The translations under genes were made by a program, and so were the position numbers. Shown one piece after another: positions 3,790-32,000 of a stretch of DNA of 32,000 nucleotides (within the stretch, counting starts at the first letter, position 1; the number at the start of each line of letters is the position of its first letter). The stretch lies in contig JAIZWK010000001.1 of the NCBI GenBank assembly GCA_021498095.1, positions 2,040,001 to 2,072,000 on the forward strand. The letters are read 5' to 3'. Below the pieces are notes generated by a model. That model searched no databases. It saw only the letters and a list, made by a program, of their open reading frames with translations, and was not told where the DNA came from. Source of the stretch: Candidatus Harpocratesius repetitus. Its GTDB lineage: Archaea; Asgardarchaeota; Lokiarchaeia; Sigyniarchaeales; Promethearchaeaceae.

Positions 3790-5382
3790 CTAAAAATGCA
3801 ATGTATCATCTTCATCTGTCATTAAATGTTTTAATTTTTTAAGTTGAGATATTGTATCTTGTATTTTTGTTAAATCATCAACATTAATTGATAGTTTCTC
3901 TAGATTGATAAGGTGTGAAATTTTTTTGGAAATATTCGAGAATTCATTTTCCATTATGTTAAATTCAGTTAAATTTATGAGTTTCCAAATACCTTCTGGC
4001 AAATTTGTTAGGTTGTTATGGCTTAGATCTAATGTTCTCAAATATTCAAGTTTTCCAATGGTTTCAGGAATACTTGTAAGATTATTTAGACTTAAATTTA
4101 ATTCTTCTAAGTAATTAAGTTGAGAAATGTTATCTGGTAAAAATTTCAGCTCATTTCCTTGTAATATTAATTTTTTTAAATTTTTAATATTTGTAATCAT
4201 TTTTGGGAAATCCGTGAACTTGTTGTGGCGAAGATCTAAGATTTCTAAGTTATTCAGTTGAGAAATACTCTCTGGTAGAGTAGTTAAATTAGTTATACCC
4301 AAGTATAATTCTCGCAAATTCTCTAATTTTCCAATACTTTTTGGAATATTCGTGAGATTGTTATAACTTAGATCAAGTATTTCTAAGTTTTTTAATTGAC
4401 CAATACTGTCAGGAATTCTTTGTAACTTGTTGTCTATTATTTCAAATTTTTTTAGATTACTAAGCTGAGAAATATTCTCTGGTAGATGGGTGATTTGATT
4501 AAAACTTATGTCTAATTCTTGCAAATTTCTAATCTCCATGATAGATTTTGTAATTTCTGAAAAATTATTGGAATGAAGTATTAATTTGTTGAGATTTGCA
4601 AGTTGAGAAATATTTTCAGGCAATTTTGATAATGAATTTGCACCTAGCATTAATATTTTTAAATTTCTAAGTTTACCAATATTTTCTGGGAGTTCTACTA
4701 ACTTATTATGCATAATATCTAAAAGTTCTAAATTCTGAAGATGCTCGATACTTTCAGGGATTTTTGTTATATTGTTATATCTTAGATACAATTTCTGTAA
4801 ATTCTTTAATTGCAATATACTCTCTGGAAATTTAGATAGATTATTTTGGTATAAATCTAAAGTTGTTAAATTGGTGAGTTGTTTAATGGATTTAGGTATT
4901 TTTGTCAAATTATTATAACTTAAGCCTAAAGCTCTTAAATTTCTAAGTTGTCCAAGATGCTTGGGAAATTCTTCAATCCGTAAGATTAGAGTAGGAATAT
5001 GCATAATATATTGGTAATATTTATTAAATGTAGCAACAACGTACTTGAAATTCTCCTTATTTAAAAGATTAAAACCTTTTATATGTGAAGGCGCAATCAT
5101 CACTTTTTCTAATGATTTACATTTTGCTAATCCTTGTAAATTTACCACATTATCTACAAAAATATAAATCTCTTGTAAATTTGGAAGTTGTGCAATAAGT
5201 GGAGTAATATAACTTAAATTTTCGAAACTGAGCGAGTCAATTCTGCTTATATCGATTTTCTTTGCTTCATTTATAGGTATGCTTTTTGAAGGTTCTTCTA
5301 TGGTAATTTGATTAGTTATTTTAACACCTGCTTTTAATTGGTATTCAGCTTGAATTTGTGTTAGTACATTTTTAGCATTCAT
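3790..5382 (-). CDS. Leucine-rich repeat protein (about 17-18 repeats of 23 aa)
   Basis: Repeated LxxLxxLDLxxNxLxxLPxxIxx units; no recognisable C-terminal effector domain. Confidence 0.95.
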   Translation of the reverse strand: MNAKNVLTQIQAEYQLKAGVKITNQITIEEPSKSIPINEAKKIDISRIDSLSFENLSYITPLIAQLPNLQEIYIFVDNVVNLQGLAKCKSLEKVMIAPSHIKGFNLLNKENFKYVVATFNKYYQYIMHIPTLILRIEEFPKHLGQLRNLRALGLSYNNLTKIPKSIKQLTNLTTLDLYQNNLSKFPESILQLKNLQKLYLRYNNITKIPESIEHLQNLELLDIMHNKLVELPENIGKLRNLKILMLGANSLSKLPENISQLANLNKLILHSNNFSEITKSIMEIRNLQELDISFNQITHLPENISQLSNLKKFEIIDNKLQRIPDSIGQLKNLEILDLSYNNLTNIPKSIGKLENLRELYLGITNLTTLPESISQLNNLEILDLRHNKFTDFPKMITNIKNLKKLILQGNELKFLPDNISQLNYLEELNLSLNNLTSIPETIGKLEYLRTLDLSHNNLTNLPEGIWKLINLTEFNIMENEFSNISKKISHLINLEKLSINVDDLTKIQDTISQLKKLKHLMTDEDDTLHF

Positions 5383-7091: not shown

Positions 7092-7136
7092 TTCAGAGTC
7101 TTTGGAGCATTTAGAGTCGTTAGAGTCTTTGAATCG
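7092..7136. repeat. Degenerate 9-bp tandem repeat (TTTAGAGTC-like, about 5 units) upstream of tbp
   Basis: ttcagagtc tttggagca tttagagtc gttagagtc tttgaatcg. Confidence 0.5.
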
Positions 7137-7474
7137 TTTTAGTTTTCAGAGTTAATATCATTAATCTAATTATCGATATTATTTGTTTAGATCCTATCTG
7201 GGATGGTAGATATATGGGAAATACTAAGGATTGAGAGTCCATTTATTTATAAATCTACAGCAAACTGATATATTAGATTGAATTCAAGATGGTATTGGTT
7301 GTGAAGTTGCTAATTTTGTTCGTAGTACTGATTGTAATATGATTGTTAAAGAAATGATGAGTTGATAACTGTGAATGTTATTATTGTTAAGAACGATCAG
7401 TTTAGTATTTGAACCTTTATTTCGTGAAATTCGCAAAAAAATTGTTAAAAAAAAATCCAAATATATCTTAATTT

Positions 7475-8674: not shown

Positions 8675-11600
8675 TTATAAAAAGAAGGAATCAAGATTTA
8701 TTTTTTGTCCATTAATAAAAACTTCTGTATATGTATAATTAGCAATATTTTTCTTTAGAAAGGCTTTTTCTTGATTAAGATCGATTGAATCTGTCTTATT
8801 ATACCAAATAATTAATATTCGTTTTTCAGTTTTTATTCCAAGAATAAACAAATATTCCACGCCATGATGCTCGTGCCATTGATAAGAATCAATTTGAATG
8901 GAGTATAAATAATTAAAAGTTTCAATCAAATCAACATTAACTGATTTTATGCCTGTATCTGATTGAATATTATATATACTTCGAAAAGGATTAGGAACTG
9001 GAAGATTACTTAACATATATGGATAGTTATGGATGAAATCATTAGGATTTAATAAATTTTGATTTGAAAATGAAATATTTTCGAAAGTGTCTTCAAATTG
9101 TTCGAGAATGTGATATTTTATTATAATTGATTTTTGTTTTGATTCTTCAGCAGTATCAATATGTCTTTTTGCGACAGAATTACTTTTAGAATCAACACTG
9201 TTAAGATCGATCAATTTTGGTTTTCCTGCGCGCCATTTAGGAGAAAAAACAAATTTAAGTAATCTGGGCTTTAAAACAGATTCAAAATAAGAACTTTTCT
9301 CAATTAAAATGAATTTTCGATGACTTTTAGAACTTTGATTCAATTCTAAAACAGCTTGTCCTGTTGTTCCTGAACCAGCAAAAAAATCTAATATCCATGA
9401 ATTTTCAGCCGATCCCAACTCAATAAATCGTTTAATTAAAGCGGTAGGTTTTGGATTAGAAAAAACAATTGTTCCAAACATTTGTTTGAGATCTGTAGTT
9501 GCTTTAGTTGTTGTTGGCAAATCTGTCCATAATGTATTTGTTACTCTACCACGGTTCATGGCTTCAAATTGATATCGTTTTCTTTGAGGTCCCGCTTCTC
9601 CGGATTTACCAAAAACAATTCTCCCTTCATTTAGCAATTTTTGAAAGGTATTATAATCATTCTTCCAACTGCAACCAGGATTTGGATAATATTCTTTACC
9701 AGTTTTTGGATTTTTAATGACATATTGTTGATTTGGCCGCCAACCTCCTACTTGAAAAGGGTCAGCTTTCCATGGTCCTTTTGGATCATTATCAGGATTA
9801 GTAAATCCCTCACCAGATTCTGGGAGACGAAATTCATTACGGTGACTGCGATAATAGGAAATATTTTTCGAAAAAATAATATTATGAGTATGGGCTTGGG
9901 AGATTAAAGCCGTATTGGTCATGGATTTCGTCGAATGCCACAATATATCCGCTATAAAATTGTGTTCTCCAAAAACTTGATTAGATAATAATCGAAAATA
10001 GTGGGTTTCATGATCATCTAAACTGGTAATTAGTAATCCTCGTTCAGAAAATAATGGATAAAGTTCAGTAAGGCTTGATTGCATTAAACTTAGCCAATAA
10101 CTATGAAGAAATCCATCATGATAAGAAAAGGTGGTATTTCCAGTATTATAAGGAGGATCAATATAACATAAGTCGATATTATTCCGATATTTATGAAGTA
10201 GTATTCGTAGTGCTTGATAATTATCAGATTGGAACAAAATTCCTGTTGTTTTTTCATCAAAATTAGAAATTGAAGCGATAATTTGATTACGAAATTTCTT
10301 AGGAAAAAATTTTGTATCGATCATCAAATTTGGAAAAGATCTTTTGAAGTTCTCACTGAATTTTAAAACATGTGAAATTTCATTTGTCTTGTGATCCTTT
10401 ATAGGAATAAAAGAAGAGAATTCCTTCAAGCTTAAAGATTGACCAAAAAGATGTTTATTTTTTATCATTTGAAGTAAATTGAAATCTAAATGTTCTTTCC
10501 ACCACTCTGTTTGTTTTTTATTTAAAAGAATTTCAGGGATAAAATGTGTAGGAATCAAATCAAGAGTCAAACAATAATCCGTTTTCAAAACCAATTTCGG
10601 TTTTTCCCAAATTTCCCTAAGGATTTCTTCAAAATTAGCCAAATGATTAATTAGTTGAAGAGAAAATTTCGTAATAAAATAACTACGAATGCGAATTTTC
10701 ATCATTCTTGCAGCAAGTTCATCAGTTAAATCGACAGCAGACTTATCAGCTAATAAATCTATTAAGTTATCATTAAACTTATCCATAAATTTAATAGGAG
10801 AATTATTTATGATTTCATCGCCAAATTCATTTGTGCGTTCATCTGTGCGTTCATTTGGGAGGTCATTGGTAAAATTATTTGAAAAAATATCCATATAAGA
10901 TGAAGATAAAGAACGAAAAGAAGGAAAAGAAGAAAAATGAACATCTTTTATGAATTTTTCAAGCTCTTGAATAAAAAAAGATCGTAAATCTCGATGGATT
11001 AGATATTCTTCCCCTTTGTATTGGCAGAGCTGTCTAAAATGCCATTCGATTGCAGAAATCATCTTCGCTTTTTTTTTTACTTTTTTTATTTTTGTTTTTT
11101 GATTTGATTGATTCGCCGACTTTTGCATTTTTTGTGCATATTCTTCAGAGAGTAATGGTTTGTAAGGATCTAAAAGATTTTGAGTAATTAATTCTTGATG
11201 ATTAGAAATAAAGTGTTGAATTTGCTCCAAATTATCTTGAAATATGTGAATAGACGAAACTCGAGTTAATTTTCTTTTCTTTTTTAATGAATGATATTCT
11301 TCAGAAGAGAGGGGTCTATATTCAAATTGAAATTTAAGATTTGAAGAATTTTTATCCCATGTAGAATCCTTTAATAGAAAATATGGTTGATGAATCCCTT
11401 TTTGTTTGCTTTCTTGCATTCTTTCTAAAGCTTGGTTACAAATAAATTCTACTTGGATATGGTGACTTGAAAATTGATACCGAATTTGGTGATCTCTGGG
11501 CTTAACATAGTATTGATCTTCAGTTGCCCACCATAGTCTGGTATCTTCTTGTGATTTTACGGCTAAATTGAGTTTTTGGGGAATAAATCTTCCATGATTA

Positions 11601-11923
11601 TAATAACGCTCAAAAAAATTAATCAGATCTCCAATAATCTGTTCAATAATCTCTTCTTCATCAATTTGATATTTTTGAAAGGAGAGTTTTCTATTCCAAT
11701 AATGAATATCTTCAGCCAAAGAGGGAATGATATCTTGAGAAATGATTTTTGATAGTTCTTTGGATCGAAAATTGAGAAATTGATGAATACCCCCTTTAAA
11801 ATTTGAAAGATCTCCTGTCAGAATCTGTTGTAATTGAATGATCAGGTTCTTTTCTCTTGCAATGAAATCCTCTTTGAATTTGTTTTTCAAGGGTATATTG
11901 CTTTTCTTCATTTTTTCTCCCAA
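8675..11923 (-). CDS. Large type III R-M Mod-like adenine DNA methyltransferase (beta order)
   Basis: Motif IV YIDPPYNTG precedes motif I ILDFFAGSGTTG; FQSDNYQAL, FSNPKP and an N-terminal FFERYY...WATEDQYYVK block typical of long Mod proteins. No Res gene is adjacent. Confidence 0.88.
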   Translation of the reverse strand: MGEKMKKSNIPLKNKFKEDFIAREKNLIIQLQQILTGDLSNFKGGIHQFLNFRSKELSKIISQDIIPSLAEDIHYWNRKLSFQKYQIDEEEIIEQIIGDLINFFERYYNHGRFIPQKLNLAVKSQEDTRLWWATEDQYYVKPRDHQIRYQFSSHHIQVEFICNQALERMQESKQKGIHQPYFLLKDSTWDKNSSNLKFQFEYRPLSSEEYHSLKKKRKLTRVSSIHIFQDNLEQIQHFISNHQELITQNLLDPYKPLLSEEYAQKMQKSANQSNQKTKIKKVKKKAKMISAIEWHFRQLCQYKGEEYLIHRDLRSFFIQELEKFIKDVHFSSFPSFRSLSSSYMDIFSNNFTNDLPNERTDERTNEFGDEIINNSPIKFMDKFNDNLIDLLADKSAVDLTDELAARMMKIRIRSYFITKFSLQLINHLANFEEILREIWEKPKLVLKTDYCLTLDLIPTHFIPEILLNKKQTEWWKEHLDFNLLQMIKNKHLFGQSLSLKEFSSFIPIKDHKTNEISHVLKFSENFKRSFPNLMIDTKFFPKKFRNQIIASISNFDEKTTGILFQSDNYQALRILLHKYRNNIDLCYIDPPYNTGNTTFSYHDGFLHSYWLSLMQSSLTELYPLFSERGLLITSLDDHETHYFRLLSNQVFGEHNFIADILWHSTKSMTNTALISQAHTHNIIFSKNISYYRSHRNEFRLPESGEGFTNPDNDPKGPWKADPFQVGGWRPNQQYVIKNPKTGKEYYPNPGCSWKNDYNTFQKLLNEGRIVFGKSGEAGPQRKRYQFEAMNRGRVTNTLWTDLPTTTKATTDLKQMFGTIVFSNPKPTALIKRFIELGSAENSWILDFFAGSGTTGQAVLELNQSSKSHRKFILIEKSSYFESVLKPRLLKFVFSPKWRAGKPKLIDLNSVDSKSNSVAKRHIDTAEESKQKSIIIKYHILEQFEDTFENISFSNQNLLNPNDFIHNYPYMLSNLPVPNPFRSIYNIQSDTGIKSVNVDLIETFNYLYSIQIDSYQWHEHHGVEYLFILGIKTEKRILIIWYNKTDSIDLNQEKAFLKKNIANYTYTEVFINGQKINLDSFFL
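10826..10857. repeat. 12-bp tandem repeat, about 2.7 copies, within mod (NERTDERTNE)
   Basis: ttcatttgtgcg ttcatctgtgcg ttcatttg. Confidence 0.8.
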
Positions 11924-23712: not shown

Positions 23713-25305
23713 GGCTATTTTTAATAACGAAGGATCAATTCACTGACATATCGGTTTGATTTTTTTTGCCCCAATTTTCGTTTAATTGAAATAGTCGTTT
23801 AATTCCTGAATTATTCCACTCATTAAAGAGAATTTTTGGGCTAAATAGGTGCGGAACAATGGTAATTCCTAAGATTTCTGGGTTATTTCGATAAATAATA
23901 TATGCCCGAAGTCGCTGTTCTAAAACCTCAGGTGTTTTAGGACCTGTTAAATGCACACGAGTCTCAATCACACTATTTATATTCTCCGCTAGATTATTTG
24001 ATATAGACTTGTGCCAAAATAAGTCTTGTGTTTCCCTAATAGCAGCTGCAACTGCGGGAAGCACATCTTTTGCCAGTTTGAGAGTTTTATGAAAAAGGTC
24101 AATTTTTGCATATCCCCGTTTTCCTCTGTCAAAAACTTTAAAAAGTCCTTTCCGCCTCCGCTTCATTTTTGGTTTTGGATTTTTTCTTTGTTTTCCTTGC
24201 CCGTTTTTCACTCCTTTTGGTCTTCCCCGTTTTTTTGATATTGACACACTCAAATCATCTTCATTCACTAGGTAAAAGTATTCTTTCTTCCCCCATTTTT
24301 TAAAAAAATCGGTTTTAACACCTATTTTGGTAGTTATTCGCTTTTTCTTTTCATAGTCTATATGCCAAATAACGGCTTTATCATAGGGTTTTTTATGTTT
24401 ATGAATTACTAAGGTAATATTACGCATCAAATTCTTGCTCATTGTTTGTGTAGCACCCCATGCATCGGCAGTAACTATTTTTATCGGCAATTTTATATTT
24501 CGATTCGCTTCCTCAAAAACTTCACGGATGTCTTTTTCGTTCCTCGTTTTTGAAACCTTTATTCCGAGGATTTTATGAGTAGTATAACCCGTGAACATGA
24601 TAATATAAAACGGTACACCGTTTATCCGAATGAAAGTTTCATCTGCTGCAACCGCAGTATCATTCGTTAATTCTACAACCAGATTTTTCAATCCTTGCAG
24701 ATCTGAAATTGTTTTCTCAATCTTAGAACGCAAATAGCAGATAAGGGCATCGGAAACCCCATATTTTTCAGCTATTGCACTCTGACTGATTTTTCCTTTC
24801 ATGATTTCTTTTGTCATCTTTCCGAGCATGCAGTCAAGCACTTCTTTGACACCTCCAGATGTAGTCAAGGCAAATTGTCGGGCAGTATTGTGCGTTTTAT
24901 TGAATAAGCATGCAGGATTTTTACACTGATAATATTGAACTCTTCTACCTTTCCGTTTATGAGTGCCACATGGTCCAACGACAGCGGAACGACATTCTGG
25001 GCACAAAACAGGTATTATTTCCAGTAATTCCTCCCTTCTATCTTCGATATTGATGTACAATGGCTCGAATAATGGAGGATATTCTTTTTTAGGGCGTCCT
25101 ACCATAGGATAACACATGATTAATGTGATTTAAACATTTCCAAAATATCGGTTTACGAACTGACTTGAAATAGATGCTTAAGGTAGTGTACGCTTTGCTC
25201 ATAAATTTCAACTAAGTTGCCAAAAATAAATATTTGAAAGATAATTTGGAAATAATTTAAAAAATATGGCTTCTCTTAATTGATCCTTTATCCTTAAAAA
25301 TAGTC
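23713..25305 (-). mobile_element. Complete 1593-bp insertion sequence, IS6-like
   Basis: TIRs GGCTATTTTTAATAACGAAGGATCAATT and GACTATTTTTAAGGATAAAGGATCAATT (23/28 match); 8-bp TSD GGAAATTG at 23705-23712 and 25306-25313. Confidence 0.93.
23735..25117 (-). CDS. DDE transposase with N-terminal Zn ribbon and HTH
   Basis: CPEC...YYQCKNPAC ribbon; AADETFI, VTADAWG and SNNLAENIN catalytic segments resemble IS6/IS1-type DDE enzymes. Confidence 0.88.
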   Translation of the reverse strand: MCYPMVGRPKKEYPPLFEPLYINIEDRREELLEIIPVLCPECRSAVVGPCGTHKRKGRRVQYYQCKNPACLFNKTHNTARQFALTTSGGVKEVLDCMLGKMTKEIMKGKISQSAIAEKYGVSDALICYLRSKIEKTISDLQGLKNLVVELTNDTAVAADETFIRINGVPFYIIMFTGYTTHKILGIKVSKTRNEKDIREVFEEANRNIKLPIKIVTADAWGATQTMSKNLMRNITLVIHKHKKPYDKAVIWHIDYEKKKRITTKIGVKTDFFKKWGKKEYFYLVNEDDLSVSISKKRGRPKGVKNGQGKQRKNPKPKMKRRRKGLFKVFDRGKRGYAKIDLFHKTLKLAKDVLPAVAAAIRETQDLFWHKSISNNLAENINSVIETRVHLTGPKTPEVLEQRLRAYIIYRNNPEILGITIVPHLFSPKILFNEWNNSGIKRLFQLNENWGKKNQTDMSVN

Positions 25306-25405
25306 GGAAATTGTTAAAATTTTCTTTGTTTTCTGCCTTTCTTTAGAATTTTAAAAGTATTATGATTTTATTGTAGGGCTTTTGTAATATTGTATTTTTG
25401 TAATT

Positions 25406-27376: not shown

Positions 27377-27892
27377 TCACATGATTTGATTTAAAGTGCG
27401 GGTCCATCTCTTTAAATCTGATAAACGAAATCTATGTACTTTTTCCCAAAATTTTATAGCTCGTCTGACGTCCTTTTTACTAAAAAATCCTTCATTCACA
27501 AGAAAGATACAAAAATCAGGCAAAAAAATAGCTTTCTTATTAATACTTAATGCTGCAGCATTTAACGCGCCATCATCTGATATGAGAACACTTGATTCTT
27601 GAATTAGAGATAATAAAAGGGTTTGATCTGCAATATCAAAATCTTCAAAAAAAGGAAAATTTTGAATCATTTGCTCGAGTTCTTTATCTTCAACAGGGAA
27701 TATATAACAATTAGTTGGAGGAAAAAAATGGTCTAAGTTATAATACACCCATTCACTAAGAACATCTTGAGTGATACAAATTCGAAAAAATTTCAATACA
27801 TGCCTTAAATCAATTATCTTGTAATTGTAAAGTTCACGAATATGATTTAACGCACAAGTATCAAGCAAAAAAAACATTACCATCTTTTTCAT
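27377..27892 (-). CDS. PIN-domain (VapC-like) nuclease/toxin
   Basis: Acidic catalytic set LLDTCAL, TQDVLSE, DIAD, ISDD. Confidence 0.82.
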   Translation of the reverse strand: MKKMVMFFLLDTCALNHIRELYNYKIIDLRHVLKFFRICITQDVLSEWVYYNLDHFFPPTNCYIFPVEDKELEQMIQNFPFFEDFDIADQTLLLSLIQESSVLISDDGALNAAALSINKKAIFLPDFCIFLVNEGFFSKKDVRRAIKFWEKVHRFRLSDLKRWTRTLNQIM

Positions 27893-27896
27893 TATC

Positions 27897-28238
27897 CTAT
27901 TTTGATGATTTGCTTTTTTTTAGAAATTCAGTTGTTTTTAGGCTCATGGCAATTTCTAGGGATTTTTCAGTCAATTCATCAGGAATTTTCTCTTCTGCAC
28001 CCCTTCGAGTCCATTCTTTGAGAAATTCTGAGCCATTAAGTCCAGAAATCTTCCATGCTTTTTTTCTATTAATTTTTCCTTCTTGAAGAAGTTTGAAGGC
28101 TAAATCAACTCGTTCATGAGAGATAATGCGAAATATATTATGTTTAACAAACTCAGTTATAGTTAATCCTCGATTATGAGCAAGTAATTGCAAGATATGT
28201 TTTTCTTCTTCAGAAATTCGAAAATTTATTTGTCCCAT
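27897..28238 (-). CDS. Putative antitoxin (RHH plus UPF0175-like HTH)
   Basis: QINFRISEEEK ribbon-helix-helix; LLQEGKINRKKAWKISGL; 4 bp upstream of the PIN gene. Confidence 0.78.
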   Translation of the reverse strand: MGQINFRISEEEKHILQLLAHNRGLTITEFVKHNIFRIISHERVDLAFKLLQEGKINRKKAWKISGLNGSEFLKEWTRRGAEEKIPDELTEKSLEIAMSLKTTEFLKKSKSSK

Positions 28239-28416: not shown

Positions 28417-29637
28417 TTATATCCATTTCCAGACAGGTTTTATAATTATTTTTTTATTTTCATATTTTACTTCATCTTCATCATCATAGGTCAATATTAA
28501 ACCTTCATTAAGATTAAACTTAATTAGGGCTTCAATTAATCCATCAAATTCTCTTTTCATATTATTTTCATTTAATTCATAGCATACTTGAATTGCCAAA
28601 GTTATTTTTTCTTTTTCTTTGATTACAAAGTCACATTCACCATTTTCTTTAAAATAGAAAATTTTTTTATTTCTTCTTTTTAATTCTTGAAAAACTAAGT
28701 TTTCGAGCATTCTTCCGTGATCAGCTGAGAATGAAATTGAATTTGCTCTGGTTAATCCATTATCTATTGAGTAAACCTTTTTTGGATTAACCAATTGTTT
28801 TTTTAGAGAATAACTGAATCTTGAAATTGTAAATAATAGATAACTTTCTTCAAAATAAGAAATAAAAGATATTATTGTATTAATAGAACCTGCGTGGAAT
28901 ATTTTTTTAAGGTTGTTAAAAGAAAATTCTTTTCCTACATTTGTTAGTAAATAAATTCCTAATTCTATTATTAGTTTGGATTCTCTAATCCCATATCTTG
29001 CGACTATATCTCTTAAAACAATATCGTTAAAAAGTTCTTGAAGAATTTGTTCATTCTCTAATTTTAGAAATTCAGGAAAACCTCCATTTTTTAAGTAATA
29101 ATCAAAAGAAGCAATATTGCTGTCTTTATTTAAGAATTGGAGCATTTCTCGATAAGAAAAGGGAAATAATTCATATCTTAAGTGTCTACCTGTAAGTTTT
29201 GTTCCTAATTCTTTACTAAGTAGTGATGCATTTGATCCTGTTATCACAAATTTCTTTCCTTGATCTAACCTTGATCTAACAAAAATCTCCCATTGCTGAA
29301 TATTTTGAATTTCATCTAAAAAATAATATTCTGATTCTCCATATTCTTTAATATATATCTCATCAAGTTTTTGAAAATCTGAATTATCAAAGCTTAAAAG
29401 GCGCGTATCTTCGAAGTTCATATAATAAAAGTTAGGTAATTCTTTCATAAGTTGAATTAATAATGTGCTTTTACCACATCTCCGTATTCCTGATATTACT
29501 AGTGCAAAATTCTTATTTATTGTAATATCATTTAATATTTCTCTTTTTATGCCAAAATCATATTTTGAAAGATTATCTTTTTGAGATTTAACTATTTCTT
29601 TCAAAGTTTTTTTTAAAATCATATTAAAATAAACCAA
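28417..29637 (-). CDS. COG1373-type ATPase (AAA_14 plus DUF4143)
   Basis: GIRRCGKST, FLDEIQ, TGSN, LTGR, GGFP, KKVYSIDNG, ENLV, ECDFV...IQVC. Confidence 0.92.
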   Translation of the reverse strand: MVYFNMILKKTLKEIVKSQKDNLSKYDFGIKREILNDITINKNFALVISGIRRCGKSTLLIQLMKELPNFYYMNFEDTRLLSFDNSDFQKLDEIYIKEYGESEYYFLDEIQNIQQWEIFVRSRLDQGKKFVITGSNASLLSKELGTKLTGRHLRYELFPFSYREMLQFLNKDSNIASFDYYLKNGGFPEFLKLENEQILQELFNDIVLRDIVARYGIRESKLIIELGIYLLTNVGKEFSFNNLKKIFHAGSINTIISFISYFEESYLLFTISRFSYSLKKQLVNPKKVYSIDNGLTRANSISFSADHGRMLENLVFQELKRRNKKIFYFKENGECDFVIKEKEKITLAIQVCYELNENNMKREFDGLIEALIKFNLNEGLILTYDDEDEVKYENKKIIIKPVWKWI

Positions 29638-29649
29638 TTAAAGGCATTT

Positions 29650-29718
29650 AAAAGTTTTCATTATCAATGAACAAAAGTTTTCAATGATAATGAACAAAAG
29701 TTTTCAATAGCAATGAAT
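29650..29718. promoter_or_regulatory. Three tandem 23-bp units, each with a TTCAWT-N3-AATGAA palindrome, in the divergent ATPase/TIR-Nudix promoter region
   Basis: aaaagttttcattatcaatgaac aaaagttttcaatgataatgaac aaaagttttcaatagcaatgaat. The repeat is certain; the operator role is inferred. Confidence 0.65.
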
Positions 29719-29749
29719 AAAAATTTCTTTTATTAATAAACAATATTTT

Positions 29750-31084
29750 ATGATTTTTTCTCTTAATTTATTTATGGTCATCGCTAAATTTAATACTCAT
29801 GAGAAGATCTCGAATAATCAACTATTTATTAGCTATTCTCATCAAGATAAAAATGAAGCATATCTCATTACGAATTTTCTTGGTGGGAAAAATATTCGCT
29901 TTTGGTATGATTATGTATTGAAAGAAAATCCAGGAATCGAATGGAAGAAAGAAATCGAACGTAACATTCGTTTCAGTGAAATTTTTATTATTCTACTCTC
30001 TGAATTCTCCATAAAATCAAGTGCTGTTAGGGAAGAATATCGTTTAGCTAAAAAATTTGAAAGAAAAATAATCCCCATCATTTTAAATGAAGATTTAAAT
30101 GCTGAAAACATCAATTCTACGAATAATGAAGAATATTCTAAAATAATAAAAGAGCATTTTCCAGATATTTACAAAAATCAATATATTGAGAAATATCGAA
30201 CTGGATACGATTTAATCGAATTTCAATCAAGCTTGTTGGCAATGGTTGAGAAGCTAACTGGTGTGCAAATTCAAGAAAGTGTTGGTTTAGTTCCTATCTA
30301 TAATATTCAAAAAACAATAATTGGTTTCACCACACGACCCTTTTTACATTTCATTCCCCAAGCTTATCACAAGACTATTATCGCTATCCTCGTTGCTCCT
30401 GTTATGCAAGATAAAGGAATTATAGATCCCACGAAACGAAAAATCATCGTTCAAGTAAAACCAAAAAAAAGGAAGAGAAGATCTGGGAGTTTAGCATTTT
30501 TTGGAGGGCATAACGAAATAAATGAGTCTTATACTGATACCGCCATACGGGAATTGAGTGAAGAAATTAATATTCCTGAAGAAGAAATTACCAAACAGCC
30601 TCTCATTAGAATTGGTAGAGAAGGTGAATTCTCATGGACAGCAGAAGATAAAGAATTTTCACGGTATAACTATGAATTCAGCACATTATATGTATACCAT
30701 CTTGCAAATCGTCCGTATTTCTTTCAAGAAACGATAGGACCTAAGATTTTACCCGTTTTTACAATTCAAATAACCTTAGATGAATTATTCAATATCTATA
30801 ATAATTCAACAACAATTGGTTCATTTATAAAAGACAATTCAATCGAAATTCCTGAAAACATACAAAAAAACATGGGAGATTTCACGGATCCATTACGATT
30901 TAGTGATGATATTGTTCGTTTATTTGGATATCCTGAAAATATCACACAAAAAAATGGACAAAGCTTTAGTGAAGATCTACAAAAGAGAAGAGAAAAATAT
31001 GAAAAGAGATGGAAAGCTGCAATCTTTGATGCAATTCAAAATCCCCACCATCTGTCAAACCCAGACTGTAAATTAATTTTATAA
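29750..31084 (+). CDS. TIR domain-Nudix hydrolase fusion protein
   Basis: TIR: LFISYSHQD, FWYD, IERNIRFSEIFIILLS, SSAVREEYRLA (E96), IIPIIL. Nudix box at 30506-30574: GHNEINESYTDTAIRELSEEINI. Confidence 0.88.
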   Translation: MIFSLNLFMVIAKFNTHEKISNNQLFISYSHQDKNEAYLITNFLGGKNIRFWYDYVLKENPGIEWKKEIERNIRFSEIFIILLSEFSIKSSAVREEYRLAKKFERKIIPIILNEDLNAENINSTNNEEYSKIIKEHFPDIYKNQYIEKYRTGYDLIEFQSSLLAMVEKLTGVQIQESVGLVPIYNIQKTIIGFTTRPFLHFIPQAYHKTIIAILVAPVMQDKGIIDPTKRKIIVQVKPKKRKRRSGSLAFFGGHNEINESYTDTAIRELSEEINIPEEEITKQPLIRIGREGEFSWTAEDKEFSRYNYEFSTLYVYHLANRPYFFQETIGPKILPVFTIQITLDELFNIYNNSTTIGSFIKDNSIEIPENIQKNMGDFTDPLRFSDDIVRLFGYPENITQKNGQSFSEDLQKRREKYEKRWKAAIFDAIQNPHHLSNPDCKLIL

Positions 31085-31183
31085 TTCTTCGTTTTTTTCT
31101 TCAATTCAGGCAAAAAACTATAATTATAAAAAGATTAATGGAAATTTTTTACTAGCAAAATACGTTGAAGGTAGGTATTTCTT

Positions 31184-32000
31184 ATGACTGAATTAAAGAA
31201 AAGAAGAAATTTAAATCGAAAAAGAGCAAAAAAAAATGTCCCACTCGCCCAATTTTTTCAAGAAATACTTCAAACTAGTAACTCTATGGAAGTAATAGTA
31301 TATGAAGGACTTGTAGGCATTAAAGTCAATTCTCCAGAAGAGGCTATGAAATGTTTTGAAAATGATCTTAATCTCCTTTACAATGGTTATTTACATTATT
31401 TTGAGGAGGAATTGAAATTCATCGAAGATTCCATATATGAATATGATTTCGGCAGTAAAGAATATAAAAAGTATAAAAGAAAGATTAGAAAATTAGTAAA
31501 GGACTATCGCAAACAGCAAGAAGTCTGGTTAAAAAATAAAGAATGGAAAAGTAAATTTGAAGAAATTTTAAGAAAAATTTGGGCGAATATTTTAAAACCA
31601 GAAAACTACCAAGGAATTCAAGGCTATGTACTTCAGTATAGTGGAAATGTTAGTGTTAGTAATGATTCCGATTATCTTTATTCATCTGAAGATTTATTAC
31701 TGTTAAAAGACAGTGCTCCAGATGGTATTACTGGTATTGCATTATCCAATGAACTCTCAAGTTTATTACATAATCTCGATATATTCATAAATGAAATACA
31801 AGAAATCTTATCTAGAATGTTAAATTGTGATGATGAAACAAAATGGATGAGATTGTTAACAAGAATTTATACTTCAGAAGATTTTCCTGTTGGAGAAACT
31901 CATTTTTATGCAATTCAAAGTATGGTTAGGAATTTTGGAATAGATGGATGGGAAATTGCCATGCGAAGAAGAGCAAAAATAAAAAAAAATAACTGGTTAG
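31184..32000 (+). CDS. Partial hypothetical protein (runs off right edge, at least 272 aa)
   Basis: Not in ORF track. Open frame from ATG 31184: MTELKKRRNLNRKRAKKNVPLAQFFQEIL...RRRAKIKKNNWL; no family recognised. Confidence 0.85.
   Translation, partial: MTELKKRRNLNRKRAKKNVPLAQFFQEILQTSNSMEVIVYEGLVGIKVNSPEEAMKCFENDLNLLYNGYLHYFEEELKFIEDSIYEYDFGSKEYKKYKRKIRKLVKDYRKQQEVWLKNKEWKSKFEEILRKIWANILKPENYQGIQGYVLQYSGNVSVSNDSDYLYSSEDLLLLKDSAPDGITGIALSNELSSLLHNLDIFINEIQEILSRMLNCDDETKWMRLLTRIYTSEDFPVGETHFYAIQSMVRNFGIDGWEIAMRRRAKIKKNNWL

Follow-up and report, generated by a model that had tools for sequence, protein, structure and literature searches.

The window analysed here is a 32,000-nt stretch of the Candidatus Harpocratesius repetitus genome (contig JAIZWK010000001.1, positions 2,040,001 to 2,072,000), and near its right end lies a gene whose product, P0001, joins a TIR domain to a Nudix domain. 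All positions below are those of the window unless a contig or genome is named. We tentatively read P0001, as a possibility not far short of even, as a self-contained two-enzyme effector that would dismantle nicotinamide adenine dinucleotide (NAD+) and that would belong to an accessory, conflict-type gene pool. Judging from the conserved residues, the TIR domain would cleave the nicotinamide-ribose bond of NAD+ via Glu96, releasing nicotinamide and linear ADP-ribose (ADPR) and no cyclic ADPR (cADPR) messenger. The fused Nudix domain, with its intact REx2EE box and a metal site (His200/His207/His254/Glu309) that would be inherited from the isopentenyl pyrophosphate (IPP) isomerase/YfcD clade, would then cut the ADPR diphosphate to give AMP and ribose-5-phosphate; it may cleave NAD(H) directly too. 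The net effect would be a hard-to-reverse breakdown of NAD+, with no ADPR left over.

The open reading frame (ORF) lies where a preliminary description of this DNA, made from the sequence alone, had placed it, and both of the domains proposed there exceed their Pfam cut-offs in one chain: TIR_2, of the STIR clan, scores 59.1 bits over residues 26-116 (cut-off 28; E 7.6e-16), and NUDIX scores 27.3 bits over residues 230-295 (cut-off 21.1; E 4e-6). On these profile matches, we assign P0001 to the TIR and Nudix superfamilies. The database copy of the protein has only 436 aa, so the true start may be the alternative Met9 (at 29774). A full-length AlphaFold2 (AF2) model has a predicted template-modelling score (pTM) of 0.50, with linkers of low confidence and a local confidence (pLDDT) of 57-88 in the TIR part, and residues 179-444, folded with a 13-sequence alignment, gave a mean pLDDT of 89.4 and a pTM of 0.89. 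The Nudix domain includes an N-terminal beta-hairpin and a lineage-specific insert at ~218-232, and in the C-terminal extension the motif F-S/A-D-D/G-I-x-R (residues 384-390) is conserved, with Cys440 in a terminal beta-strand.

Conserved TIR features of P0001 include the FISYS beta-A strand, the BB-loop Gly62, Trp65 and Ser90. Foldseek matched the TIR part of the AF2 model to SPARTA TIR-APAZ, RPP1, RPS4 and SARM1 at probability 1.0, and a profile built from the TIR parts of the family matched the solved structures of Cat1 (4.6e-12), TLR6, AbTir, SARM1/tir-1 and plant TIRs. Glu96, which had been picked out earlier as the catalytic Glu, is present and invariant across 10 TIR-Nudix proteins, and it shares an alignment column with the Glu of AbTir (WTNYE), Cat1 and TLR6; in AbTir chains this column corresponds to E208 by its offset from W204. 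Gly62 aligns with AbTir G174, a BB-loop Gly essential for activity (10.1101/2022.05.07.491051), and is kept in 8 of the 10 fusion proteins.

The position four residues before the Glu bears on which product the TIR domain would make. AbTir has W204 here, which is needed for cyclisation, and in a survey of 122 proteins all 12 cADPR-producing TIRs were aromatic at this position, while the surveyed non-aromatic TIRs gave ADPR only (10.1101/2022.05.07.491051). The equivalent residue in P0001 is Ala92, and the residues found at this position in 10 family members are A, S, F, N, Y, D, Y, A, S and H. Because the aromatic is absent, linear ADPR is expected rather than 2'- or 3'-cADPR, i.e., the predicted TIR product is plain ADPR and not a cyclic messenger. 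Trp65, which sits at the AbTir L177 position, might compensate for the missing aromatic.

The Nudix box of P0001 reads G253-x5-E259-x7-R267-E268-L269-S-E271-E272-I-N274-I275 and follows the consensus GX5EX7REUXEEXGU except for its last G, which is replaced by N274; the preliminary description was thus right to call it near-perfect. For the Nudix model, the top Foldseek matches (2fkb, 3dup, 1hx3 and 2i6k) start with E. coli YfcD (2fkb); type-1 IPP isomerases of E. coli and humans and DR0079 are in the set ranked first, and matches in the Swiss-Prot AlphaFold library were CA_C0446, the Nudix part of S. pombe Tnr3, many Idi proteins, YfcD and AtNUDT3. By sequence profile, the best solved relative is again YfcD (E 1e-11), in a match that includes the N-terminal beta-hairpin. 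The domain belongs to the YfcD/IPP-isomerase clade and is not ADPRase-like.

An alignment with E. coli Idi (sequence taken from NC_000913) equates His200/His207/His254/Glu309 with the metal ligands H25/H32/H69/E116, and Glu272 with E87. Four of the five Idi metal ligands are therefore kept, the fifth (E114) being replaced by Asn307, and the Idi catalytic Cys67 is replaced by Gly252 in all family members. These two replacements argue that the P0001 Nudix is not an isomerase. The metal-site residues and the catalytic Nudix-box residues are invariant in 13 family sequences, and on this alignment the domain joins an IDI-type His-rich metal site to a complete hydrolase box, a combination without parallel in YfcD.

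Relatives of the whole protein are few. A word-index search returned only three that are full-length (38-48% identity). An exhaustive HMMER search with a profile of the Nudix and C-terminal parts against 1.84 billion cluster representatives gave 64 matches at E<=1e-3, of which 14 reached E<=1e-10, and a Pfam scan of the top matches found six further TIR_2+NUDIX proteins (271-408 aa). Residues invariant in 10 fusions (25-52% identity) are F26, S28, Y29, W52, S90, E96 and A100 on the TIR side, and G192, H200, H207, G252, G253, H254, E259, A265, R267, E268, E271, E272, L285 and G289 on the Nudix side. Invariance of Glu96 and the catalytic Nudix-box residues at such distances shows that the motifs are not there by chance. 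P0017 is 27% identical to P0001 over 310 aa in an alignment that spans both domains, which indicates that the fusion has been inherited as a unit with both catalytic centres under purifying selection.

The TIR-Nudix gene is a rare accessory gene of Lokiarchaeia-like Asgard archaea. All named family members come from Promethearchaeota/Lokiarchaeota metagenome-assembled genomes (MAGs), in agreement with the earlier view of this gene as an Asgard example. Profile matches at E<=1e-12 occur in 6 of 400 species-representative genomes of the window's phylum, and tblastn found a full TIR-Nudix gene in only three of the 400: the window's own genome (G000), one of the same genus (G135) and G272. The same tblastn searches found a protein of another architecture (Nudix followed by a DrHyd domain, described below) in G155, a shorter ORF matching only in its Nudix part in G397 and a fragment in G087. 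In the cluster of P0005, another assembly has the G135-type gene as two ORFs (P0072/P0073), split inside the Nudix insert (…ENGLSM / …QIKPKK); the split reflects either a frameshift in this allele or a fault in the assembly.

Family-specific patterns found no relative among IMG/VR viral contigs and JGI metagenome contigs, and a scan of genome contigs with a generic Nudix-box pattern found only unrelated bacterial Nudix genes. A search of Atlas clusters with the fusion returned only generic TIR or Nudix clusters and, as a weak lead with a score of 0.77, Nuc_deoxyri_tr2+Nudix clusters of bacteria and phages. The sequencing runs containing the gene comprise one DNA run, probably of the source sample, and no RNA run. 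No paper in a literature text search names a TIR-Nudix or Nudix-TIR architecture, although comparative-genomics work may have described it before.

Of the readings that make use of all conserved features, two-step breakdown of NAD+ is, as we tentatively see it, the simplest. It is also the best fit of the three options in the preliminary description, one of which was complete NAD depletion. Conservation of both catalytic centres, the sporadic distribution and the loss of the gene in a sister species support it, as do the confident Nudix model with its complete hydrolase box (unlike ligand-sensor Nudix domains), the fusion of this Nudix clade to a DrHyd-type domain in other Asgard proteins, and conflict-type neighbours at two of the four loci with usable context. 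An adaptive reason to destroy ADPR may lie in the phage pathway NARP1, which rebuilds NAD+ from ADPR and whose intermediate ADPR-PP is cleaved by NudC, a Nudix enzyme (10.1101/2024.02.11.579819). The fused Nudix might make NAD+ depletion by the TIR domain 'reconstitution-proof', removing ADPR, and possibly ADPR-PP, from NARP1-type viral pathways. We consider this extension unlikely, but if true it would be a single-chain host counter-counter-defence built on a previously uncharacterised IDI-like Nudix clade, which Asgard archaea would have joined more than once to TIR or DrHyd N-glycosidase domains.

Several points weigh against two-step NAD+ breakdown. Ala92 at the W204 position could also mean low NADase activity: in mutants that lose this aromatic, activity falls (AbTir W204A) or is abolished (L6 W131A and ROQ1 W82A) (10.1101/2022.05.07.491051). 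NCBIfam matches of P0001 include no ADPRase or NudC model, and those of its Nudix domain are limited to far sub-threshold matches to CoA pyrophosphatase and MutT-type models. Likewise, the nearest Nudix relatives (the functionally obscure YfcD, IPP isomerases, DR0079) include no ADPR/NADH pyrophosphatase. ADPRases have a Pro ~15-16 residues past the Nudix box, and NudC enzymes have a SQPWPFPxS motif; in P0001, positions +15/+16 after the box are R290 and E291, and SQPWPFPxS was not found in the sequence. With nothing to tie the domain to the ADPRase or NudC subfamilies, its substrate is not readable from homology. In addition, a sensor or trigger domain was not identified in P0001, and two of the four loci with usable context (L001, L004) have no defence genes.

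What evidence there is on the substrate is contextual and comes from the fusion partners TIR and DrHyd. Other Asgard genomes encode proteins (876 and 1031 aa) that begin with a Nudix domain of this clade and continue with a Nuc_deoxyrib_tr (DrHyd-type) domain, the reverse of the order in TIR-Nudix; in P0021, from a Hermodarchaeota MAG, the second domain scores 34.9 bits (cut-off 28.8). In conflict systems, DrHyd domains have been described as NADase equivalents of TIR, and the two are both N-glycosidase folds of the TIR-DrHyd-SLOG class (PMC9503650). The Nudix-DrHyd proteins are P0012/P0075 (876 aa), P0021 (1031 aa) and the product of G155 (L021 1785-2780), and the large ones have several hundred residues of uncharacterised sequence after the DrHyd domain.

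The preliminary description had put forward a single-chain writer and eraser of an immune signal: the TIR domain would make a cyclic or modified ADPR messenger, which the Nudix domain would trim into a new messenger or clear as basal signal. TIR signal generators (ThsB) are established, as are Nudix and other hydrolases that remove TIR products, e.g., plant NUDT7 (10.1101/2021.11.09.467869), and phage cREC-Nudix fusions are predicted to degrade cADPR (PMC9503650). P0001 itself has a borderline match to the Pfam family ThsB_TIR (22.4 bits, cut-off 21.2) and weak matches to PADLOC ThsB models, and the L005 copy of the gene lies among TIR-LRR, Nudix and SIR2_2 genes. However, the cyclisation residue is an Ala that varies in the family, and the Nudix domain is nearest to YfcD and type-1 IPP isomerases rather than to ADPR/NADH pyrophosphatases. 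At none of the loci does TIR-Nudix have a conserved neighbour that could act as receptor or effector (SLOG, Macro, STING or SAVED-type), and combining writer and eraser 1:1 in a single chain would be pointless without regulation, so we think signalling of this kind improbable.

Alternatively, P0001 might decap NAD-capped RNA in two steps, with the TIR domain removing nicotinamide from the NAD cap (deNAMing) and the Nudix domain cleaving the diphosphate of the resulting ADPR-RNA to leave 5'-monophosphate RNA. Bacterial TIRs and one archaeal TIR (TcpA) do deNAM NAD-RNA, from which NudC then yields p-RNA; this route has been proposed to operate in vivo, and NAD-cap levels are reported to be high in archaea (PMC10937652). 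A covalent TIR-Nudix fusion would embody that route. However, sporadic presence (3 of 400 related genomes) and loss in a sister species are unlike what one would expect of a housekeeping function in RNA turnover, and Pfam found no RNA-binding domain in P0001. We rate decapping as no more probable than signalling.

Less probable again is general nucleotide depletion, in which the Nudix domain would turn nucleoside triphosphates, nucleoside diphosphates or deoxynucleoside triphosphates into nucleoside monophosphates and the TIR or DrHyd-type domain would remove the base. The same Nudix clade is indeed fused to a nucleoside 2-deoxyribosyltransferase-type domain, and DR0079, a CDP/CTP-preferring Nudix, is among the structural neighbours of the Nudix model. 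The TIR-DrHyd-SLOG class also has a common N-glycosidase chemistry, but the TIR enzymes characterised so far have been described as specialised on NAD+ (PMC9503650), and the canonical NADase Glu and BB-loop Gly are both retained in the P0001 TIR. Finally, a non-catalytic Nudix that senses a ligand (NrtR-type) and gates the TIR domain would have precedents in the Nudix ADPR sensors of conflict-system transcription factors (PMC9503650) and would suit the usual need of TIR effectors for a regulatory domain, but it is very improbable, since the invariance of the catalytic Nudix-box residues and the extra metal site in 13 sequences is the pattern of an enzyme and not of a degenerate sensor.

We therefore keep two-step NAD+ breakdown as the preferred, tentative reading, and turn to the gene's surroundings. 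The window holds housekeeping genes (TBP, Nep1, RNase P Rpr2, YhbY) among an insertion sequence (IS) copy and leucine-rich repeat (LRR), methylase and antitoxin-type genes. Features of the gene and its neighbours are collected in Table 1.

Table 1. Coordinates of the TIR-Nudix gene, its parts and neighbouring features in the window
Feature	Position	Strand	Remarks
529-aa protein, LRRs throughout	3790-5382	-	Same window
1081-aa protein, N6_N4 DNA methylase domain	8675-11923	-	Same window
171-aa ORF without family match	27377-27892	-	Adjoins ribbon-helix-helix (RHH) gene
RHH (RelB/TacA-like) antitoxin-type gene	27897-28238	-	Upstream, beyond ATPase
AAA_14 + DUF4143 ATPase	28417..29637	-	Divergent from TIR-Nudix; PADLOC candidate PDC-S01, E 8e-115
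23-bp tandem repeat, 3.3 copies	29650..29726		In 112-bp divergent intergenic region
TIR-Nudix ORF	29750..31084	+	444 aa, P0001
TIR domain	29819..30259	+	Residues ~24-170; Pfam TIR_2, Foldseek, family profile
Ala92 codon	30023..30025	+	AbTir W204 position, non-aromatic here
Glu96 codon	30035..30037	+	Catalytic-Glu position of NADase TIRs, within SSAVREEYRLA
Nudix domain, YfcD/IDI-like clade	30284..30775	+	Residues 179-342; AF2 model, Foldseek, profile
IDI-type metal-site span	30347..30676	+	His200, His207, His254, Asn307, Glu309; Idi alignment
Nudix box	30506..30574	+	Residues 253-275, GHNEINESYTDTAIRELSEEINI
C-terminal helical extension	30776..31081	+	Residues 343-444
Left copy, 72-bp direct repeat	31045..31116	+	Last 40 nt of TIR-Nudix ORF + 32 nt downstream
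LRR gene, 5' part	31184..32000	+	672-aa protein, uncharacterised N-domain then LRRs; extends past window

The preliminary description had suggested a survey of neighbourhoods. Conflict-type neighbours are found at two of the four loci with usable context, the window (the PDC-S01 ATPase, the RHH antitoxin-type gene and the LRR gene) and L005, and L001 and L004 have no defence genes. At L005 (1-9279 of a contig from ENA ERZ27275847), the genes after P0017 are two of Zn-ribbon-TIR-LRR type, a transmembrane (TM)-Nudix gene (PDC-S07-like), a SIR2_2 gene and a tetratricopeptide repeat (TPR) gene. This is a dense NAD-themed cluster, in which the two TIR-LRR genes are convergent and the TM-Nudix product is a 576-aa membrane protein with its Nudix domain at the end. 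The G135 copy (38% identity) stands in an unrelated context without synteny to the window beyond the gene itself, and the P0010 locus has metabolic-gene neighbours. Nudix regions of family members match PDC-S07 weakly (E 1e-3 to 2e-8), and the annotated flanks of the window gene contain no SIR2-, SLOG-, Macro- or TM-type effector gene.

On the upstream side, the RHH gene and the adjoining 171-aa ORF (27377..28238) are likely a toxin-antitoxin pair. Every copy of the 23-bp repeat holds an imperfect palindrome, TTCAnT-N3-AATGAA, and the array, which is conserved in the sister species G136, is a candidate operator or regulator-binding array. The ATPase was considered as an obligate partner of TIR-Nudix and rejected, as G136 keeps the ATPase without TIR-Nudix.

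At 89% identity, G136 retains the ATPase gene with the intergenic repeats and, of the TIR-Nudix gene, only the initial ~85 nt. In this relic a 30-bp deletion takes out the ATG and an in-frame stop is present, after which homology ends. It lies at 3954-4060 of L026 (G136:C60), corresponding to window positions 29750-29841, and its residues 4-32 are 76% identical. The genes that abut it are 73-78% orthologues of genes which in G000 stand 290 kb away, beside a paralogue of the window's LRR gene. Since the relic is joined to genes that are distant in G000, a rearrangement destroyed the TIR-Nudix gene in G136.

Downstream, a gap of 99 bp (31085-31183) separates TIR-Nudix from the LRR gene. A right copy of the 72-bp repeat, 83% identical to the left, lies just after the LRR gene (G000 2073182-2073253; L003 4183-4254). 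Read from the alignment, it encodes HHLTNPDCKLIF and a stop in the TIR-Nudix frame, versus HHLSNPDCKLIL and a stop in the gene itself. The distal copy keeps the last 12 TIR-Nudix codons, and the LRR ORF runs into this copy in a different frame and terminates there; between the two copies, which bracket the 2.1-kb LRR gene, there is no integrase. Flanking of the LRR gene by a duplicate of the TIR-Nudix 3' end indicates that it arrived by insertion, and the arrangement resembles that left by a cassette which, on inserting, duplicated its target gene's 3' end.

We also considered the LRR gene as a conserved sensor partner of TIR-Nudix and rejected this as a general rule. It is bounded by the duplicated TIR-Nudix 3' end, it is absent at two of the three other loci with context, and it has only the LRR repeats in common with the TIR-LRR neighbours at L005. 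A single paralogue of its N-domain (39% identity over 645 aa) exists elsewhere in the genome, and near that paralogue there is no TIR_2 profile match (no search aimed at Nudix was made there), and a feature search of the Atlas with the N-domain gave no usable match. With ~10 LRR ORFs in 4.36 Mb, LRR adjacency at two of the four TIR-Nudix loci is suggestive but does not amount to conservation.

The IS element at 24000-25313 (which includes the DDE transposase ORF 23735-25117) has at least 6 full genome copies that are 89-95% identical, and at dozens of genome loci only its two ~140-bp ends stand side by side, resembling miniature inverted-repeat transposable element (MITE) derivatives. A ~320-bp repeat at L003 ~7127-7468 (G000 ~2076126-2076467) has >40 genome copies at 88-94% identity. 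Past the LRR insertion, on the minus strand of L003 4219-5224, are three short ORFs, two of which hold different pieces of a major facilitator superfamily (MFS) transporter while the third has no family match; they are probably a fragmented pseudogene.

TIR NADases are an immune currency common to bacteria, archaea, plants and animals. The fate of the TIR product decides the outcome, i.e., signal, metabolic collapse or a state which a virus can reverse, and a family in which a product-processing enzyme is welded to the TIR domain would be a natural experiment in that choice. TIR-Nudix would also give a functionally obscure YfcD/IDI-like Nudix clade its first nucleotide-linked context, and it is predicted to widen the defence repertoire of Asgard archaea by one accessory TIR effector. 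The suggestion that it bears on the origin of eukaryotic TIR immunity found no support: we found no link specifically to eukaryotic TIRs, the best solved-structure matches include bacterial proteins (Cat1, AbTir) as well as animal ones (TLRs, SARM1), and the family is by itself uninformative on this question.

Among known systems, the prokaryotic NADase TIRs and SARM1 are the best solved-structure matches of the P0001 TIR by both sequence and fold. AbTir, archaeal TcpA, CRISPR-associated Cat1, SPARTA TIR-APAZ and SARM1 have in common with P0001 the TIR fold, FISY-type beta-A strand, BB-loop Gly and Glu. P0001 differs from them in lacking the aromatic at the W204 position and in having a Nudix partner instead of a coiled-coil, APAZ, CARF or SAM domain. 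Thoeris ThsB is also a TIR enzyme of conflict systems, to which the P0001 match is borderline, but P0001 lacks a nearby ThsA-type effector, has a predicted non-cyclic product and carries a fused Nudix.

On the Nudix side, YfcD and Idi are closest in structure and sequence, with the N-terminal beta-hairpin in common. Unlike Idi, P0001 keeps the full REx2EE hydrolase box and lacks the catalytic Cys; unlike YfcD, it keeps all three His residues; and unlike both, it has an extra 100-aa helical C-terminal extension. NadM (nicotinamide mononucleotide adenylyltransferase/ADPR pyrophosphatase), which is among the Foldseek matches of the full-length P0001 model, is likewise an NAD-pathway enzyme fused to a Nudix acting on a pathway nucleotide. 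However, NadM serves to build and regulate NAD+, in housekeeping or in phage salvage, and carries a Nudix that falls in the ADPRase clade. In phages, cREC-Nudix fusions and NudE-like Nudix proteins that stand alone are predicted to degrade ADPR-derived signals; like P0001, they couple a Nudix with a second enzyme that acts on NAD-derived molecules in conflict settings (PMC9503650), but these are viral counter-defence, and family-specific patterns found no relative of P0001 in IMG/VR. The PADLOC candidate defence families PDC-S07 (Nudix) and PDC-S01 (ATPase) are matched by the family's Nudix regions and the neighbouring ATPase, respectively. As far as its residues and matches allow it to be classed, P0001 is not a ThsB-type cyclase, an Idi or an ADPRase-clade Nudix, and it is predicted to work in the manner of TIR NADase effectors, but with the hydrolase for the product built in.

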